DNA of 11,761 bases, from IMG/VR virus record IMGVR_UViG_2617271050_000004. One strand, written 5' to 3'. Of the stretch, positions 2,856 to 11,564 are shown one piece after another (position 1 is the first letter of the stretch; every line of letters begins with the position of its first letter). Made by a program: the position numbers and the translations under genes. Origin of the DNA: a virus (Duplodnaviria; Heunggongvirae; Uroviricota; Caudoviricetes). The notes below the pieces were generated by a model. That model saw nothing but the letters and a program-made list of their open reading frames with translations, was not told the DNA's origin and searched no databases.

Positions 2856-3074
2856 TCAAAGAGAGAGCGCCACCTGTCCTGATTTCATTGGATGCGGCTG
2901 AACCGGATTTGACTCTTTTGGCGTTGCAATCGAACGAACAAAAGTTTCATGGGTAACAAAAGTATGGCTGCAGTTAATGTTCTGGCACTGGTTGTAACGC
3001 TCTTTGGTCAATGAAGATACCTGAAAACTGCTGCGAGTATGGGCGGCACTTCCACACAGTGGGCAAATCATCAT
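2856..3074 (-). CDS. ogr: Ogr/Delta-family zinc-finger late-gene transcription activator (about 72 aa)
   Basis: Translation MICPLCGSAAHTRSS...ERYNQCQNINCSHTF has the C-x2-C...C-x4-C zinc-finger pattern of P2 Ogr. I place the start at ATG 3072-3074 rather than the upstream GTG at 3107, because GGGGAGA lies about 9 nt upstream of that ATG and the resulting length matches Ogr. It is the last gene of the tail block, as in P2. Confidence 0.85.
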   Translation of the reverse strand: MMICPLCGSAAHTRSSFQVSSLTKERYNQCQNINCSHTFVTHETFVRSIATPKESNPVQPHPMKSGQVALSL

Positions 3075-3164: not shown

Positions 3165-4265
3165 TCATTCCATTTCGAAATCATCAATCCTCACTTCAAG
3201 CTCCAGACTGGTTGTAAAACCGTTATCGGGGCTGACGGTATGCGTCAGAGTCGTAATGGTCCATTCCGCATCATCTATCGGCTGTTTAAAGCCACTGACT
3301 TTCACTGGCATTTCCGTGTAGAGATCTGCCCGACCTTCTGCCAGTAGTAGCGAGAATGACGCAACGCCGCGTTGCAGGCGTTCCCACTGCATTTTCGCCG
3401 CCCGTTCGGCGTTGCTCCGGTTGGCATAAGTGCGATTAAGTACCAGCACGTTTTCATCCGTACCCACCAGGTAATCGCCCTGCTTCGCTTCCGGCTCTTT
3501 CTTCTGCTTCTTAGTCCTGCGCTTACGCTTCACCGTGGTGCTTTCTTTCTTCGCGGGTTCGCGGGTATGCAACCAGCTGGCAATTACGCCCGTGTAGGCT
3601 CCGCGATCTGCCAGGGTAAAGCGGTGACTGTCGCCGTCCTTACGTGTGATAGTGATAACCGGTAGTGGTTTACCGCTGGCGCTTTTACCCTGTCCCTGCC
3701 GGATGAATAACAGATTGCCATTTTTCACCGACGCAATAGCACCGTACTGGCGCGCCAGCCGCATCAGAAAACTGCCGTCACTCTCATTGGTCTGGTCTAT
3801 ATGCTCCACGGGTTTATCCGACAGGTCTTCACCCAATGCCATCTTCAGTTTGTGCCGCGCAGATATTTCCTTCACCACTTCCCCAACGGTGGTCTTGTGC
3901 CACGATTTTTCACGGCGGGTATTCAGCGTTTCACGAAAATCAGCACTTCGCGCCCGGATAGTCAGGCGGTCCGGTGCGCCAGTGTGTTCAATCTCGTCCA
4001 CCGTGAATGCCCCTTTCGGGAAAAGCGGCTGCCCCTTCCACCCCAGCGCCAGCGTAATGACCGCACCACGGCGCGGCAGCACGATTTTTCCGTCGGCGTC
4101 GTCCAGCTCCAGATCAAGCTGGTCCGCTTCAAATCCCCGATTGTCCGTCAGCGTCAGACTCATCAGGCGGTTATCCAGCACAGTAGTGATATCCCTGCCC
4201 TCAATACTGATGCTGAATGCGGGAGTTTTGTTGCCTTTGTTAAGCAGTTCAGAGCTGAAATTCAC
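3165..4265 (-). CDS. D: tail protein D (late control gene D family, 366 aa)
   Basis: Translation recognised as P2 gpD family. Position between U and ogr matches P2 order. The start overlaps the U stop by 4 nt. Confidence 0.88.
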   Translation of the reverse strand: MNFSSELLNKGNKTPAFSISIEGRDITTVLDNRLMSLTLTDNRGFEADQLDLELDDADGKIVLPRRGAVITLALGWKGQPLFPKGAFTVDEIEHTGAPDRLTIRARSADFRETLNTRREKSWHKTTVGEVVKEISARHKLKMALGEDLSDKPVEHIDQTNESDGSFLMRLARQYGAIASVKNGNLLFIRQGQGKSASGKPLPVITITRKDGDSHRFTLADRGAYTGVIASWLHTREPAKKESTTVKRKRRTKKQKKEPEAKQGDYLVGTDENVLVLNRTYANRSNAERAAKMQWERLQRGVASFSLLLAEGRADLYTEMPVKVSGFKQPIDDAEWTITTLTHTVSPDNGFTTSLELEVRIDDFEME

Positions 4266-4747
4266 GACAGCAGCCCTCCCACCGTTTTACTGATATCGCT
4301 TAATGCAGACGTTGCCGTGTCCTGCAGATTATTCAGTTGAGTACTGAGATCACCGAACATATCGGACAGGGATTCATCCACCCGTTTTAGCGAAAGGGTG
4401 AACTCAATCCTGCGCGGCATACCGTCGCGGAAAAACTCCGTTTTAGTCTGATTCAGTCCCTCAATCACATACATGCCGTAAATCGTGCCGCTGCCTTCAA
4501 TCAGGGGCCATGCTTTCCCCTGTTCTGCCATCTGCTCCAGTGCCAGCAACGACAGCCTGCCGCCTGTTATTTCCGGCATAAGAACACCGGAAAGCGTCAG
4601 CATGTCGTTTTCCGGTCCCAGAAACTGCGTGGACGGACGTCGGTTTACCCGACTGTTTGCCGCATGTCGCCAGCTGCGTTGATACTGCAGTTCCTGATAC
4701 GGAACGGTGCGCAGCATAAACACGTACAATCCCAGCACCATCATCAT
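4262..4747 (-). CDS. U: tail protein U (161 aa)
   Basis: Size and position between T and D match P2 gpU. Four-nt overlaps with both neighbours indicate translational coupling. Confidence 0.82.
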   Translation of the reverse strand: MMMVLGLYVFMLRTVPYQELQYQRSWRHAANSRVNRRPSTQFLGPENDMLTLSGVLMPEITGGRLSLLALEQMAEQGKAWPLIEGSGTIYGMYVIEGLNQTKTEFFRDGMPRRIEFTLSLKRVDESLSDMFGDLSTQLNNLQDTATSALSDISKTVGGLLS

Positions 4748-7700
4748 GCGTCGTATCCCCCCTGATCGCTGTAGTTACTCCTGGCTTTTGCCTTCAGCCT
4801 GCGTTCACGTTCATCAAGCTGGCGTGCCACCTCCCGCGCAATATCCTGCGCACTTTGTCCTGGCTGCGTCTGAATGATGATCTGCGTCGGTGCCTCAATC
4901 CGTTGAACGAGCGGCACAGTGGCTGCGCGACTCACAATTGCTTCTCCACCTTTCGCGGGAAGTGCCAAAGGGTGCAATGGTGGAAGCTCTGCTGGCGCGG
5001 CAGCAACGCCCATCATTCCGGCAACAACGGCAGCCAGTGCAGCTGTATTTCTCCGGCTGGTCACATTTGCCGGGCCGTTAACAATTTCCGGCCCGTTTTC
5101 ACCGACGATGCCAAACTGCCCGCGCGGGATATACCCGCCGCTGTCATACATCCCCGCAAAGCCATATCCCCATGATGGAAAACCACCCGATGGCATCATC
5201 ACTTTACCGTCTGCATTCACCGTCGCAGGTTGCTGACGCGTCACGCTTTCCGGCAGTTTTGCCTTTGCGGCCTCTTTACTGACAATGCCGAGCTTCTCCA
5301 GCAACCAGGAAACGCCGGATTTCAGGGAGTCCAGCGGATGCATGACCATATTCAGCCCTTCCGCCAGTGCCTCCCCGAATCGCCGCCCCATTGCCGCTGC
5401 GCTCTGCAGTTCGGCAGAGGTCGACTTAACGGGCGTCAGCAGATCAGTAAACCAGCCCCACAGCGCCTGCACTTTGTCGCCAATCCACTGGAACACGGGC
5501 TTAAGCGGTTCGAACGCTGCACTGATGGGACCTGCCGCCGCTTTGAATCCTTCCACCACGCCACCGAGAAATGCGGTGATGGGTTGCCAGTATTTCCAGA
5601 CAACCAGCGCCACGCCCGCCAGTGCAGTAACCACAAGACCTATCGGACTGAGCAGAGCACCTAACAGACCAGATATGGCATACAGGGCAACGCGCAGCAT
5701 CGCCAGTGGACCAGATGCCAGTACTCGCAGCACCGTGCCTGCGGCGGCCAGTCCACCGCGCAGTACCGCCAGAGGATTCATAAACATCACAGCAACAGCA
5801 CGTAAACCGGATAATCCAGACCGCAAAAGTGCAACCGGCGCACCTGCTACAGTTTTCAGGACATTTCCCGTCAGTGATGCCGTGCGGCGCAAAGACGACA
5901 ACGGCGCAGTAAGTAAACCTGCGGCGTTGCCCGATGAAGCAAGCCCGCGTCGCAGCAGTGCCAGTGGCGCGCCAGCCAGCCAGGACAACGCGCTGCTGGT
6001 TCGAGTTACTGCTGCCGTAACGGAAGATAACGTTTTGATACCCAACACAGAGAATCCCAGACGGATCACTGCTAGCGGCCCCAGCACTGCAGCCAGCGCC
6101 ACCGCTAAGGTGCCGAGGCCGACGGTAACCGCAGCCACAACAGCCGATGCTTTCATCAGTGTGCCTGTCAGTTCCGGGTTAGCTTCCACCCAGCGACGCA
6201 ACGCCCCCGTGACGCTTTTCACCGTGTACAGAATATCCATCAGCGGCTGGCGCAGCGTTTCGCCCAGGCTGCTGAAGGTGTTCTGCGCTCCGGTTTTGAC
6301 CAGCAACCACTGCGCAGAAAGTGAATCCTTGTTAATGTCGGATTCTTTCTGCATGGAGCCGAGCGCATCATTGCCCGCTGTCAGTTTTAACTGACGCTGC
6401 AGTTCCGGCAGGTTGTTTGCCAGTTTCGCCGCGTCATCGCCAAACTCTTTACCAAACAACATAGTCATGGCAGACAGGCGCTTGTCCTGCGGCAGCGCGT
6501 TTACCTTCTCCAGCACGCGCTGGATGGTTCCCATCGCATCCTTCGTCATCTGCTTTTCAATCACTTCAGGATTGAGTTTCAGCAGATTCATCCCTTCAAA
6601 GAAACTCTTGCTTTGCATGGTGGCAATGGACAATTCACGCACCATCGCGTTTGCTGCACTGGCTGCAACCTCTGGCGCAGCGCCCAGTGTCAGGAAGGTG
6701 GAACCCAGCGCCGCCGCTTTACGATAATCCAGACGGTCAGCCACACCGCCCAGACGTTGCATCACATCAATGATGTCTGCCCCTTTCGACATGGCGTTAT
6801 CATCCAGATAGTTCAGCGCATCACCGAGCTGTTCAATATTGCGGGTGGGGATTTTGTAGAGCTGGGCGATTTTCCCCAGACTTTCTGACAGTTCATCCGC
6901 TGGCAGCTCAAAGGCTGTTGCCGCCTTTGCTGCCGTACTGGCGAAGGCCAGCAGGTCACGTTTCTGATCTTCCCAGCTGTCGTCAGGGTTTGCGACGTTC
7001 ATGCGCGCACCACCTTCAACCAGTGCAGCGAAGTCCACCGCACCGTTTTCCATCGGCAACTGTTCGCTGGCAGCCTTGATGGCATCCTGCATTTCATAAA
7101 AACGTGCAGTGCGGTTGCCATTATCGTCACGCAGACCATTGACCTGCTTTGCCACACCTTTCATGGCATCTTCCATGCTGGTATAGCTTTTTACTGCCGC
7201 CATCACTGGCGCACCCATTGCCAGCCCTGCAGCCGTGGTGGTGGCTCCGGCACCTGCAATACGATCACGCACCTCCAGCGAACGGGCATAACTGGCACGC
7301 GCCGCATTCATCCTGCGCTGAGCTTCACCCAGTCGCTTCAGCCGCGCCTCCTGTTTCGAAAGCTCCTGGTTATAACGTGATGTTTCACGGGCTAAACGGG
7401 CAGTTGCTCCTGCATCGTCTTTCGCAGAAATTCCCGCCCGGTACAGTTCAGCACGCACAAGCGCCGTCTGCTGCTGCAGCTTTTTCTGGCGTTCTTCCAG
7501 GCGCTGAACAGCCAGCCGTTGACGGCCCAGAGCAACAACCTGACGTTGCGAAGGCGGCCCCATCGCTCCCAGTTCCTGACTGAGCAAATTTGCACGCTGG
7601 CGGGCATAGTTCAGCCTGTCGCCTAATTTCTGATTTTCTGCCTGCAGCTTTCGGAAGCTGTCCAGACTGCTCCCGGCCTGATCAAGCTGCTTTATTGCAT

Positions 7701-7821
7701 CGCGGGATTTTTTGACAGCAGCAGCCAGTTCTCTTGAACTGGCCTGTGCAGATCGAAATGGGCGGGTGAGCTTGTCAACCGCATTAAGAATGACCTGCAG
7801 ACGCAGGTTGTTATCACTCAT
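4744..7821 (-). CDS. T: tail tape measure protein T (1025 aa)
   Basis: Long ORF with a charged, coiled-coil-like N-terminal third, a hydrophobic Ala/Leu/Gly-rich middle with degenerate short repeats (APLALLRRGL, APVALLRSGL, NPLAVLRGGL, GPLAMLRVAL) and a Gly-rich C-terminus. This is typical tape measure architecture, and the gene lies immediately after E/E' as in P2. Confidence 0.9.
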   Translation of the reverse strand: MSDNNLRLQVILNAVDKLTRPFRSAQASSRELAAAVKKSRDAIKQLDQAGSSLDSFRKLQAENQKLGDRLNYARQRANLLSQELGAMGPPSQRQVVALGRQRLAVQRLEERQKKLQQQTALVRAELYRAGISAKDDAGATARLARETSRYNQELSKQEARLKRLGEAQRRMNAARASYARSLEVRDRIAGAGATTTAAGLAMGAPVMAAVKSYTSMEDAMKGVAKQVNGLRDDNGNRTARFYEMQDAIKAASEQLPMENGAVDFAALVEGGARMNVANPDDSWEDQKRDLLAFASTAAKAATAFELPADELSESLGKIAQLYKIPTRNIEQLGDALNYLDDNAMSKGADIIDVMQRLGGVADRLDYRKAAALGSTFLTLGAAPEVAASAANAMVRELSIATMQSKSFFEGMNLLKLNPEVIEKQMTKDAMGTIQRVLEKVNALPQDKRLSAMTMLFGKEFGDDAAKLANNLPELQRQLKLTAGNDALGSMQKESDINKDSLSAQWLLVKTGAQNTFSSLGETLRQPLMDILYTVKSVTGALRRWVEANPELTGTLMKASAVVAAVTVGLGTLAVALAAVLGPLAVIRLGFSVLGIKTLSSVTAAVTRTSSALSWLAGAPLALLRRGLASSGNAAGLLTAPLSSLRRTASLTGNVLKTVAGAPVALLRSGLSGLRAVAVMFMNPLAVLRGGLAAAGTVLRVLASGPLAMLRVALYAISGLLGALLSPIGLVVTALAGVALVVWKYWQPITAFLGGVVEGFKAAAGPISAAFEPLKPVFQWIGDKVQALWGWFTDLLTPVKSTSAELQSAAAMGRRFGEALAEGLNMVMHPLDSLKSGVSWLLEKLGIVSKEAAKAKLPESVTRQQPATVNADGKVMMPSGGFPSWGYGFAGMYDSGGYIPRGQFGIVGENGPEIVNGPANVTSRRNTAALAAVVAGMMGVAAAPAELPPLHPLALPAKGGEAIVSRAATVPLVQRIEAPTQIIIQTQPGQSAQDIAREVARQLDERERRLKAKARSNYSDQGGYDA

Positions 7822-8250
7822 CGTTGGCCCCGCTTCTCTGAATCGCTTTATACCGCCATTCCAGCACTTCGGTCAGCGGCATAACGTCAGTAACGGATGG
7901 CGGCCAGTGAAAAATGGTGGCGATATCTGCCACCAGATCGTCAACCGTCAGGCTGTCGGCAAACCGGCAAGCACCGACTTCTTCAACAAAAAAGTGACAA
8001 CCTCAACCGACATGGCAGTGAGATCTGCCGGGTCCATCTCTGCAATTTCCTGTGCAGTCAGTGCCGGACTGGAGATGCGGGGGATCACGGTCATCATCGC
8101 GTTTACATCCATATCCATAATGGCCTGCAGGCGTGTACCGCGCAGCGCACCGGACTGCGGTTTACGCAGCACAATTTCGGTGATTTCTGTTTTACCGCGC
8201 TTGATGGGGGTATCCAGTTGAATGGTCTTTTCAGTCTGCTTATCGCTCAT
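7814..8250 (-). CDS. E+E': tail assembly chaperone E+E' (about 145 aa), made by programmed -1 ribosomal frameshift at 7987-7993
   Basis: On the minus strand the zero-frame codons ACT TTT TTG form the heptamer T_TTT_TTG. After a -1 slip the reading frame stays open for 57 codons (VEEVGACRFADSLTVDDLVADIATIFHWPPSVTDVMPLTEVLEWRYKAIQRSGANDE) and ends at TGA 7814-7816, overlapping the T start codon (7819-7821). I translated this by hand from the sequence. Confidence 0.75.
7948..8250 (-). CDS. E: tail assembly chaperone E (100 aa, zero-frame product)
   Basis: Small ORF between FII and T, the position of P2 gene E. It contains the slippery heptamer near its 3' end. Confidence 0.82.
   Translation of the reverse strand: MSDKQTEKTIQLDTPIKRGKTEITEIVLRKPQSGALRGTRLQAIMDMDVNAMMTVIPRISSPALTAQEIAEMDPADLTAMSVEVVTFLLKKSVLAGLPTA
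7987..7993 (-). other. Programmed -1 frameshift slippery heptamer TTTTTTG (plus strand CAAAAAA)
   Basis: Exact X_XXY_YYZ heptamer in the E zero frame. It sits where the E/E' (lambda G/GT-like) frameshift is expected, about 87 codons into E. Confidence 0.75.
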
Positions 8251-8304
8251 TTTGCTGTCCTGTCAATTGGGTTCTGGCGCGGTATCCCGCGCCGTTCAGA
8301 TATA

Positions 8305-8820
8305 TCAGAGGCCGAGGGCGTTGCGGTGCGCTTCCATCAGGTCCACACCGTCCACAATTTCCACCATGTTGATAAGGTCCACTTCATAGAGCACCTCACC
8401 ATTGATGGTCAGCTTCGCGTAGCTGTTGGTACTGGTCACTTTGGTGGTGTTGCTTTCGCCCGTCTTCCACTCGCCGGAATCCACTTCTTTGTGACGTCCA
8501 CGCACGACAAGCTCCACGGCCTGCACTTCCCCGGTATCGTCACGCTGAATAGAGCCGGTAAAGCGCAGCTGGATGCCATCCACCGTGGCTTTACCCATCT
8601 GTTTAAACAGCAGCAATTCAGTACCACCAATGGAAAATTCTGTGTCCAGCGCACTGTCATCAAGCCCCAGGTCCACATCCACCGCACCCGGCATTCCGCC
8701 GCCGCGATACTTCTCATATTTGCGGGTAAATTTCGGCAGCGTCAGCGACTCAACGATCCCCTGCCAGTTGTTCCCGTCGTTAAACAGGTTCAGGTGTTTT
8801 AATTTGCGTGGTAAAGCCAT
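8305..8820 (-). CDS. FII: tail tube protein FII (171 aa)
   Basis: Translation MALPRKLKHLNLFNDG... recognised as P2 FII family. It lies immediately downstream of FI with a 9-nt spacer. Confidence 0.9.
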   Translation of the reverse strand: MALPRKLKHLNLFNDGNNWQGIVESLTLPKFTRKYEKYRGGGMPGAVDVDLGLDDSALDTEFSIGGTELLLFKQMGKATVDGIQLRFTGSIQRDDTGEVQAVELVVRGRHKEVDSGEWKTGESNTTKVTSTNSYAKLTINGEVLYEVDLINMVEIVDGVDLMEAHRNALGL

Positions 8821-8829
8821 GTTGTCCCC

Positions 8830-10002
8830 TTACGCGCTGACCTGGCTGGCGAAATTCACCAGGTACTGATCGGTGATGCGCTGACGCAGCATCAGGTTTT
8901 CAAGTGGCGGCACTGGCGTGTAGTCGTAGTCGATGGTGAGTTTTCCGGCTTTCAGCGTGTCTTTGTCGTTCACCGACTCATCCAGCCAGCAATCACCACC
9001 AATGAGATAGCCCTGACTGACCAGGCTGCGCATTTTGGCGCGGATACCTTCGATAATGTCGCGGGCCAGCGACGGGTTAAGCGGTTTATCCACCGCCCAC
9101 AGGTGTGCTTCTGCCATCGTGTCCATCAGCACCTGCGCCGTGCGGGTGTAGTTTTCGAAGGCAAAGAGCGGGTCATCACTCAGGCAGCGGGAACCCCAGA
9201 AGCGGAAACCGTCTTTACGCACAAGCGTGGTGACGTCGTTCTGGTTCAGCAGACCTGCATCGGTTGCCGGGTCCTGCAGATCCCAGAACACATCTGCAGA
9301 AATTCCGGTGACACCGTTCACGCCCACGTTGGACAGGCTTTTGTGCCATCCGGTCTGCTCGTCAATTTTGGCGCGCAGACCAAGCGCACGGGCGGTGGCA
9401 TATGCCGTTGCTTCGGCATTCAGCACCGTGTCCCAGCCAGTAAAGTCAGGCCAGATCAGCATCCCTTCGCGCTGGCTGAAGTTTTCGCGGTAAGTGATCG
9501 CCTCCTGCACTGTCTTGCAGCCATACGCTGACAGGTAAGCAAATCCACGCAGGCTTTGCGCCACGCTTAGCAACTCAGTAGCTACCGCCTTGGTGTCGTG
9601 GCCTGGCACGCCGAGAATGCGCGGTTTAACGCCGAGCTGTGACTGGGCAGATAACAGGGCTTTCATACCTGTTTTTTTACCTTCAGCAGTCACTGCGCCG
9701 ATGATATTGGTCGTGGTTTCGTCTTCCGTTTCACCCTGCGGCACACGCACAACAATGGTCACGGGTTTTGCCTGGTCAGCGATGGCATCCAGCGAACGGG
9801 CCAGAGTACCTGACTCACCCGCTTTACCGCTGGCAGTCAGCACATCAGTGATCAGCACGGGTTTATTAAGAGGAAACATTTTTGCATCGGCATCATCGCC
9901 CGTGCAGACCATACCCACGATGGCGGTGCTCACCGTGGTAATGGATCGGGTGCCTTCGTTGACTTCAACAACGCGCACCCCGTGGTGGTAATCCTGAGCC
10001 AT
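8830..10002 (-). CDS. FI: contractile tail sheath protein FI (390 aa)
   Basis: Translation [34 protein letters not shown]... is closely similar to P2 FI from memory. A strong RBS (AGGAGG) lies about 9 nt upstream of ATG 10000-10002. Confidence 0.92.
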
Positions 10003-10078
10003 AGTGGCGAACCTCCTGATTGGATTAGGCTTCGCCCTATGTTGAAGTGATTGTGCCTGACAAACAGCTAAGCGCAGT

Positions 10079-10096
10079 TGTACCGTTATTCACACA
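10079..10096 (-). promoter_or_regulatory. Candidate Ogr-dependent P2-type late promoter activator site (TGT-N12-ACA) for the FI operon
   Basis: Palindromic TGT-N12-ACA element centred at 10087/10088, about 85 nt upstream of the FI start codon. This fits an activator site centred near -55 with a roughly 30-nt leader. No good -35 is present, as expected for an activator-dependent promoter. Confidence 0.4.
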
Positions 10097-10144
10097 AAAT
10101 GACGGTATTTGTCTGCTTTCAGGGATAATCAAAATAAAGCTGAT

Positions 10145-10711
10145 TCAGGGAGATTTATTGCTCTTATTTGCCGGAAATTTTCGATAAATGGTAGAAACGC
10201 CTACATCAAAAATCAGTGCAATACGCTGTCTTGATTCTCCGGCCTCGAGTAAACGCCCAATCTGTGCCCACTGTTCGCTGGTCAACTTAGGACGGCGTCC
10301 ACCTACTCTGCCCTTAGCACGAGCTGCAGCCAGCCCCGCCCTGGTACGTTCAACTATCAGTTCGCGTTCCATTTCAGCCAGGGCACCCATGACATGAAAA
10401 AAGAAACGGCCCATTGGGGTGCTGGTATCAATACTGTCAGTCAGGCTTCGGAAATTCACGCCACGCTGGCGCAGCTCTTCTATCAGCGTAACAAGATGCC
10501 GCATACTGCGCCCCAGTCTGTCCAGCTTCCAGACAACCAGCGTGTCTCCTGCCGATAGTGTCCTGAGCAGCTTTTTCAGCCCCGGTCTGTCTGACTTGGT
10601 GCCACTGATTTTATCCTCAAAAATCCGCTCACATCCCGCACAGTTCAGTGCATTGCGTTGCAAATCGGTGTTCTGGTCATTTGTTGACACGCGTACATAG
10701 CCAATAAGCAT
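10145..10711 (-). CDS. serine-recombinase DNA invertase (Gin/Hin/Pin/Cin family, about 188 aa)
   Basis: N-terminus MLIGYVRVSTNDQNTDLQRNAL... with the catalytic serine context VRVSTxxQ, and a C-terminal helix-turn-helix (VGVSTIYRKF). It is near-identical in pattern to the e14 Pin and Mu Gin invertases. I place the start at the second ATG (10709-10711) because GGGGGA lies about 5 nt upstream; the ORF track starts 6 nt earlier. Confidence 0.9.
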   Translation of the reverse strand: MLIGYVRVSTNDQNTDLQRNALNCAGCERIFEDKISGTKSDRPGLKKLLRTLSAGDTLVVWKLDRLGRSMRHLVTLIEELRQRGVNFRSLTDSIDTSTPMGRFFFHVMGALAEMERELIVERTRAGLAAARAKGRVGGRRPKLTSEQWAQIGRLLEAGESRQRIALIFDVGVSTIYRKFPANKSNKSP

Positions 10712-10738
10712 GATCATCCCCCTGAATAAAAACCGGAA

Positions 10739-11290
10739 ATGATGCCAGTTAGCCGTTATCTCTGCATTTTCATAAACGTTGGTTTAGGAGAAGGCTCAGC
10801 ATTGCCTGTTGGCGTACCTGTTCCGTGGCCCTCAGCCACTCCGCCAACAGGCTGGCTAAAATGCAACGGAGCAGCTTTTTCTGCTGAAGAATACCCAGAA
10901 CTGGCAAAGGCTTACCCGACAAATAAATTGCCTGATTTACGTGGTGAGTTTATTCGTGGCTGGGATGACGGACGTGGTATGGATACGGGGAGGGCAATAT
11001 TATCAGCTCAGGGCGATGCCATACGTAATATCTATGGTGAGTTCAAGACTGTAAACACCGAAAATTATTCAATATGGGAATCAGTAGGCTCGTTTAAGGG
11101 GGCAGTGGTGCCTTTGAATCCATCAACGAACAATAGTTATTTCTCCTTAATCAGAAGTATGGTGACTGAAAGAACAGATGGCGCTGTTTACCCAAAAGTG
11201 ATTGGCCTTGATGCTTCAAGAATTGTTCCAACTGCAAACGAAAACCGTCCTCGTAACATTGCCTTTAATTATATCGTGAGAGCTGCCTGA
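10739..11290 (+). CDS. tail-fibre C-terminal variable cassette (alternative, currently unfused orientation)
   Basis: The ORF starts in or at the crossover site and reads into the segment. The translation (GVPVPWPSATPPTGWLKCNGAAFSAEEYPELAKAYPTNKLPDLRGEFIRGWDDGRGMD...) resembles the receptor-binding C-terminal part of phage tail fibres (Mu S/S', P1 S, P2 H). There is no convincing RBS and no N-terminal constant part on this strand. Its stop overlaps the start of the downstream assembly gene (TGATG). Confidence 0.7.
   Translation: MMPVSRYLCIFINVGLGEGSALPVGVPVPWPSATPPTGWLKCNGAAFSAEEYPELAKAYPTNKLPDLRGEFIRGWDDGRGMDTGRAILSAQGDAIRNIYGEFKTVNTENYSIWESVGSFKGAVVPLNPSTNNSYFSLIRSMVTERTDGAVYPKVIGLDASRIVPTANENRPRNIAFNYIVRAA
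10767..10792. promoter_or_regulatory. Candidate 26-bp invertase crossover site (gix/hix-like) bounding the invertible tail-fibre segment
   Basis: TTTTCATAAACG-TT-GGTTTAGGAGAA: two imperfect 12-bp inverted half-sites around a 2-bp core, with the AAAC..GGTTT centre typical of gix/hix sites (about 9 of 12 matches per half-site to TTATCAAAAACC as recalled). It lies 56 bp from the invertase start, inside the 5' end of the tail-fibre cassette ORF. Confidence 0.45.
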
Positions 11291-11554: not shown

Positions 11555-11564
11555 NNNNNNNNNG
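11555..11564. other. Assembly gap (10 N)
   Basis: A run of ten n characters. Coding frames on the two sides are incompatible, so the true gap is larger than 10 bp or the join is artificial. Confidence 0.95.

Follow-up and report, generated by a model that had tools for sequence, protein, structure and literature searches.

In phage P2 the Ogr protein recruits RNA polymerase through the alpha subunit of the enzyme, and the dyad of a P2-type late promoter has its centre about 55 nt ahead of the transcript start (the "-55" rule). Four late promoters of P2 share the consensus TGT-N12-ACA and depend on the zinc-finger protein Ogr (CX2CX22CX4C) (PMC3931495). For one of these, PF, the P2 record (NC_001895) labels 17555-17583 as 'activator binding site; activation of pF promoter', has the F-operon transcript begin at 17626-17628 and places the FI ATG at 17652. 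In the record of phage 186 (NC_001317) the B-protein site spans 14091-14110, pJ initiates at 14159 and the sheath gene is placed at 14183. The locus described here compares as follows with these and two further phages (plus positions are counted from the dyad start):

P2: dyad start at -91 from the FI ATG; GAAAAT at +53 to +58; annotated start at +65 to +67
186: dyad start at -90 from the FI ATG; GACAAT at +52 to +57; annotated start at +66
PSP3: dyad start at -91 from the FI ATG; GAAAAT at +54 to +59; start without annotation
Fels-2: dyad start at -90 from the FI ATG; GAACAT at +52 to +57; start without annotation
Window: dyad start at -94 from the FI ATG; CAACAT at +52 to +57; start predicted only

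The window is the whole stretch of DNA that was analysed, 11,761 nt of IMG/VR record IMGVR_UViG_2617271050_000004. Within it, the interval 10003-10144 (142 nt) is the exact gap between the stop codon of a DNA-invertase gene and the FI ATG. We consider it very probable that this interval is the orthologue of P2 PF and 186 pJ, a late promoter dependent on an Ogr-family protein. The original prediction had called it a candidate Ogr-activated late promoter, a reading supported by the dyad, its placement, its conservation, the regulon pattern and the presence of the activator gene. The features are these:

10717-10145, minus strand: DNA-invertase gene, Din-type (Pfam Resolvase and HTH_7), directly upstream of FI
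10106-10127, minus strand: non-promoter filler upstream of the dyad, left over from a gpG-type tail-fibre-assembly gene (3' end)
10078-10097, minus strand: predicted Ogr-family binding dyad TTGT-N12-ACAA (core TGT-N12-ACA at 10079-10096, centre 10087.5)
10039-10044, minus strand: -10-like hexamer CAACAT (xAAxAT), 52-57 nt after the dyad start
10029-10033, minus strand: predicted transcript start (annotated P2 and 186 starts transferred; about 10032 by the -55 rule)
10013-10018, minus strand: FI Shine-Dalgarno sequence AGGAGG, 10 nt before the ATG
10002-8830, minus strand: FI, tail sheath (Pfam)
8820-8305, minus strand: FII
8250-7814, minus strand: E/E'
7821-4744, minus strand: T
4747-4262, minus strand: U
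4265-3165, minus strand: D
3165-10002, minus strand: late tail operon FI-FII-E/E'-T-U-D (RefSeq annotation of the RM14721 sibling prophage)
2856-3074, minus strand: ogr homologue, 72 aa, presumed activator (intact C4 motif CX2C-X22-CX4C)

The operon assignment uses a sibling prophage of E. coli RM14721, in which the coordinate of the locus equals the window coordinate plus 20000. The site thus stands at the head of the late morphogenetic operon FI FII E E' T U D. RefSeq annotation gives no promoter for the FI upstream region in this prophage lineage. Within the E gene there is a TTTTTTG heptamer (7987-7993, minus strand), which we take to be a slippery site of the P2 type, serving the -1 frameshift between E and E'.

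Bases 1-2778 of the window are E. coli chromosome (grxA, ybjM, ybjL and rybB). The RybB sRNA gene lies at 2700-2778 on the plus strand (Rfam RF00110, 105 bits) and was the sole match in an Rfam scan of the whole window, which gave none in the interval. Identity to E. coli K-12 stops exactly at the rybB 3' end (2778), and hence a P2-like prophage is integrated there with ogr as its last gene. An invertible tail-fibre cassette lies beyond the invertase gene at the other end of the window. A run of 10 N (an assembly gap or mask) falls at 11555-11564 inside this invertible segment, and minus-strand sequence past the run codes for the C-terminal portion of a tail-fibre-assembly (gpG/Tfa-like) protein. 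The region 9700-10500 is 96-98% identical to E. coli CP019275, to Escherichia phages 500465-1 and Cartapus and to several Klebsiella P2-like phages, and the interval was found in 829 of 5426 complete E. coli genomes (about 15%).

The dyad, promoter core and activator

The dyad, TGTGTGAATAACGGTACA, runs from 10096 to 10079 on the minus strand (the FI coding strand) and starts at -94 from the FI ATG. It matches the P2-type late promoter consensus TGT-N12-ACA perfectly, as had been claimed for positions 10079-10096, and is also part of the longer form TTGT-N12-ACAA. The bare six-base motif is found at chance frequency in the window and is no evidence alone: there are five matches against 3.06 expected, and at least five were obtained in 35 of 200 shuffles. 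The other four matches (302, 957, 6774 and 8769) were set aside as chance occurrences, all being intragenic and lacking the TTGT/ACAA extension. The extended form, expected 0.19 times in the window, has one match there. Of 200,000 dinucleotide-shuffled versions of the 142-nt gap, 4.6% had TGT-N12-ACA at any position and 0.37% had it within the 10-nt slot matching P2 and 186; the corresponding values for TTGT-N12-ACAA were 0.5% and 0.05%.

The -10-like hexamer CAACAT (10044-10039) agrees with the consensus at three of six positions and is the sole -10 candidate at the right place. A sigma-70 promoter scan of both strands of 9900-10800 detected no promoter. The sequence TTGTCA at 10063-10058 is a five of six match to the -35 consensus, but we discarded it as a usable -35, since CAACAT is just 13 nt away and the other sequence groups lack it. 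The weak -10 and absence of a visible -35 described in the original prediction therefore stand, as does the strong AGGAGG ribosome binding site of FI (10018-10013, 10 nt 5' of the ATG).

Transfer of the GenBank starts of P2 PF and 186 pJ places the predicted start at 10029-10031, whereas the -55 rule gives about 10032, and the two estimates agree within 1-3 nt. The dyad centre would then lie 56.5-58.5 nt upstream of the start, versus the 55 nt given previously, and the predicted leader would be about 28 nt long (28-30 nt over the start range 10029-10033).

The presumed activator is encoded in the window at 3074..2856 on the minus strand, as had been noted, at the end of the tail operon that it presumably activates. 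Its C4 motif is intact and it belongs to Pfam Ogr_Delta (E = 5e-22). The protein is 51% identical to P2 Ogr (E = 2e-28) and 54% identical to both 186 B and PSP3 Pag. Between the window Ogr (2856-3074) and that of phage 500465-1 (L002 16405-16623) identity is 62.5%, although the FI promoter regions of the two are 97.5% identical; this disparity points to mosaic replacement of the activator gene within one lineage. As the window Ogr is only about 51-62% identical to characterised and neighbouring Ogr proteins, its exact half-site preference is assumed.

A second activator was considered for the same bases. Read from 10094 to 10079 on the minus strand, the sequence TGTGA-N6-GTACA has a perfect left half-site (TGTGA) for CRP (cAMP receptor protein), which would put the tail operon under catabolite control, and the right half agrees with TCACA at three of five positions in the window and at four of five (ACACA) in 500465-1 and RM14721. 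However, this register is due solely to a TGTGTG run found in two sequence groups, and no CRP-like site is present in P2, 186, PSP3, Fels-2 or the GCCAT-type group, all of which keep the N12 spacing. CRP sites are usually centred at -41.5, -61.5 or -71.5. The centre here would be about 56.5 nt from the predicted start, off those positions, and the conserved TGTGA-N6-TCACA centred at -61.5 or -71.5 of a class I CRP promoter was not found. We regard regulation by CRP as extremely unlikely and retain the Ogr-family dyad.

By analogy with P2, induction would lead to synthesis of the Ogr-family zinc-finger protein from 3074..2856, and this Ogr homologue would bind the TTGT-N12-ACAA dyad at 10097-10078. 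The bound protein, about 56-58 nt upstream of the start, would recruit sigma-70 RNA polymerase to a promoter having a weak -10 and no -35. Transcription would begin near 10029-10033 on the minus strand and run through FI, FII, E/E', T, U and D, the leader of about 28-30 nt carrying AGGAGG. We infer activator binding, RNA polymerase alpha contact, the exact start and late timing; start position and Ogr dependence are those predicted by homology to P2 and 186.

Conservation among relatives and the other late operons

A scan of IMG/VR gave 80 loci having an FI 97-100% identical to the window FI, in 78 of which the FI start could be located. All 78 have a perfect TGT-N12-ACA at -92, -93 or -94. 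Their upstream regions comprise 57 distinct sequences that fall into several unrelated groups, and the upstream neighbour varies among an invertase gene, a tail-fibre assembly gene, an acyltransferase gene and a terminator hairpin. It is this conservation across unrelated upstream sequences that puts the dyad beyond chance. When nine representatives less than 80% identical, P2 and 186 included, were aligned without gaps on the dyad, the conserved elements were TTGTG, CA at +16/17 and the -10-like hexamer, with almost everything else unalignable. Across sequence groups less than 80% identical together with P2, 186, PSP3 and Fels-2, TTGT(G/A) and (A/C)CA are found 90-94 nt before the ATG, and an xAAxAT hexamer lies 52-59 nt after the dyad start in all of these FI upstream regions. 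The hexamer reads GAACAT or CAACAT in Fels-2 and the other sequence groups. The TGT and ACA arms are invariant in the close variants of the region (23 distinct sequences), in which the spacer bases beside ACA are the most polymorphic positions.

The homology of one relative (L074) with the window starts just 5 nt ahead of TTGT, which makes the dyad the left edge of a conserved FI cassette. Directly upstream of the FI promoter the same locus carries a gene for a 394-aa membrane acyltransferase-like protein (L074 85-1269) in place of the invertase gene.

The window lacks the other late operons, and hence the RM14721 prophage, which has the same insertion site and ogr region and is 99.8-100% identical to the window over the first 3 kb, was used for a regulon test. 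In 20.4 kb of this prophage there are exactly three TTGT-N12-ACAA sites (one each ahead of FI and V, the third in the O/P intergenic region), and 22.8 kb of RM14721 host flank contains none. Phage 500465-1 has three TTGT-N12-ACAA sites at matching places (FI, V and O/P), each followed at +52 to +58 by a CAAC-type hexamer, and at its V site the predicted start falls on the V ATG, as in the P2 record. The three sites occupy the positions of P2 PF, PV and the shared PP/PO.

These data bear on the view that the dyad is vestigial or fortuitous and that FI owes most of its transcription to read-through out of the invertase gene or the V-H-G operon. The chance frequency of the bare motif in the window is in its favor, and so is the upstream sequence: we found no terminator-like hairpin between 10145 and the dyad (10097-10145, minus strand), and the predicted RNA fold of 10060-10175 was no better than that of shuffled sequences (z = -0.77). 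In P2, in 186 and in relatives without the invertase gene, that place, immediately upstream of the dyad, is occupied by a GC hairpin followed by a T run. A co-directional invertase gene lacking a terminator before FI means that some FI transcription could be read-through. Such read-through may add to FI output, but it leaves the conservation of the dyad unexplained: its position is precisely kept across unrelated upstream contexts, its arms are invariant while the spacer is polymorphic, and in the sibling prophage the extended form is restricted to three late-operon heads. We therefore rate a vestigial or chance dyad as very unlikely and favor an Ogr-dependent promoter.

The DNA between the invertase gene and the dyad

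The sequence immediately upstream of the dyad has its own history. In one relative (L072) the sequence matching 10106-10127 encodes ...WPVFPASR followed by a stop codon, the 3' end of a gpG-type tail-fibre-assembly gene. As the window retains this end as a vestige, the invertase module was apparently inserted into or beside the end of an older G gene. The gap between G and FI is a hot spot at which cargo genes (invertase, acyltransferase and Z/fun) are exchanged.

Given the invertase gene next door, the interval might instead belong to the inversion system as a gix/cix-type crossover half-site or accessory site. Variants of 10119-10135 read TTCCTGTAAGC, which in our view is similar to the left half-site of Mu gix, and mosaic breakpoints fall there. 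The stretch is, however, the coding 3' end of the tail-fibre-assembly gene in L072, which explains its conservation, and crossover sites are found elsewhere (10766-10791 in the window and a 27-nt inverted repeat in 500465-1). Moreover, the dyad is also present in the invertase-less phages P2, 186 and PSP3. The half-site at 10119-10135 is contradicted by the L072 coding end and by the location of the crossover sites, and we give a role in the inversion system next to no probability. We keep the promoter reading for the interval, the 10106-10127 segment being filler.

The likely Din-type crossover site in the window, TTTTCATAAACGTTGGTTTAGGAGAA at 10766-10791 on the plus strand, lies inside a silent tail-fibre ORF. 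In 500465-1 the crossover sites are the 27-nt inverted repeat (L002 6878-6904 and 8708-8734), the copies being 1.8 kb apart. The invertase ORF is also bracketed exactly by a 12-nt inverted repeat, ATTCAGGGAGAT / ATCCCCCTGAAT (10143-10154 and 10716-10727, 92% complementary), which could be fortuitous or could mark the edges of a module.

Two other candidates in this neighbourhood were rejected. A MAFFT alignment with P2 PF that matched GACAAATA in both sequences implied an alternative dyad, TGA-N12-GCA at 10131-10114; this was discarded because its spacing to GACAAATA is different, its arms have two mismatches and it falls on the vestigial gpG 3' end. The second was a hairpin formed by CCGTCATT and AATAACGG around the left half-site, which folds no better than shuffled sequences and has arms that vary without consistent compensation.

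On the plus strand CAAAAT (CAACAT in some variants) occurs at 10130-10135, which is +51 to +56 relative to the dyad and thus has the geometry of a divergent Ogr-type promoter. No clear equivalent of this hexamer was seen in Fels-2. Bidirectional activity by way of CAAAAT 10130-10135 is speculative. A broader conjecture, which we consider very unlikely, is that a PF copy placed beside the terminator-less invertase gene gained bidirectional Ogr-dependent firing together with low-level invertase read-through in lysogens. If that were so, divergent firing would be antisense through the invertase gene toward the silent tail-fibre cassette and would freeze inversion late in infection.

Comparison with characterised late promoters

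The FI promoter is an unannotated but conventional orthologue of an ordinary, well-known type, and it opens no new question. Its mildly unusual features are only the missing upstream terminator and the possible divergent -10. The present analysis adds a late-promoter annotation, with a predicted start at about 10030, to a common E. coli prophage lineage, and offers little beyond annotation. The annotation should help those who engineer P2-like or P4-based particles, and should help to predict by which satellite or helper activators the tail genes can be switched on.

The P2 late-promoter geometry attributed to the site in the original prediction has indirect support from the records: the distances from the dyad to the hexamer and from the dyad to the FI ATG match those of P2 PF and 186 pJ, and the proposed comparison with the P2, 186 and PSP3 promoters finds the dyad and weak hexamer kept at matching positions. 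The likeness to P2 PF extends to the operon FI FII E E' T U D with ogr after it, a TGT-N12-xCA dyad that precedes the FI ATG by about 91-94 nt, an xAAxAT hexamer at a like distance, the lack of a -35 and a cognate C4 zinc-finger activator. P2 and 186 have TGT-N12-CCA, so that the ACA of the window is closer to the consensus than either. In contrast, sequence outside the motif is unalignable with P2, the leader is about 28 nt (predicted) in the window versus about 25 nt in P2, and the upstream neighbour in the window is a co-directional invertase gene without a terminator whereas P2 has the divergent Z/fun gene and a hairpin at this place. The FI proteins of the window and P2 are 68% identical, as against 51% for Ogr.

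With 186 pJ the window shares an identical dyad-hexamer spacing (+52 to +57) and the gene order. The 186 promoter differs in having terminator t45 immediately upstream of the site, in an activator, B, that is 54% identical to the window Ogr, and in sequence outside the motif, which again is unalignable with the window.

The P2 PP/PO pair, which shares one activator site, has the same type of dyad as FI, and the O/P site of the sibling prophage reads TTGTGTGGTTGTCGGTACAA, close to the FI site. PP/PO is bidirectional, whereas the FI site has only a weak hint of a divergent -10 (CAAAAT 10130-10135, plus strand).

The promoter is annotated in none of the Fels-2, 500465-1 or Cartapus-type records. 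The invertase-PF-FI arrangement of the window is shared with Fels-2 and with the Klebsiella and E. coli Wadgaonvirus-type P2-like phages (500465-1 and Cartapus). Phage 500465-1 is 97.5% identical across the interval and its dyad differs at two spacer bases, and Fels-2 has an FI 90% identical to that of the window and a perfect dyad at -90.
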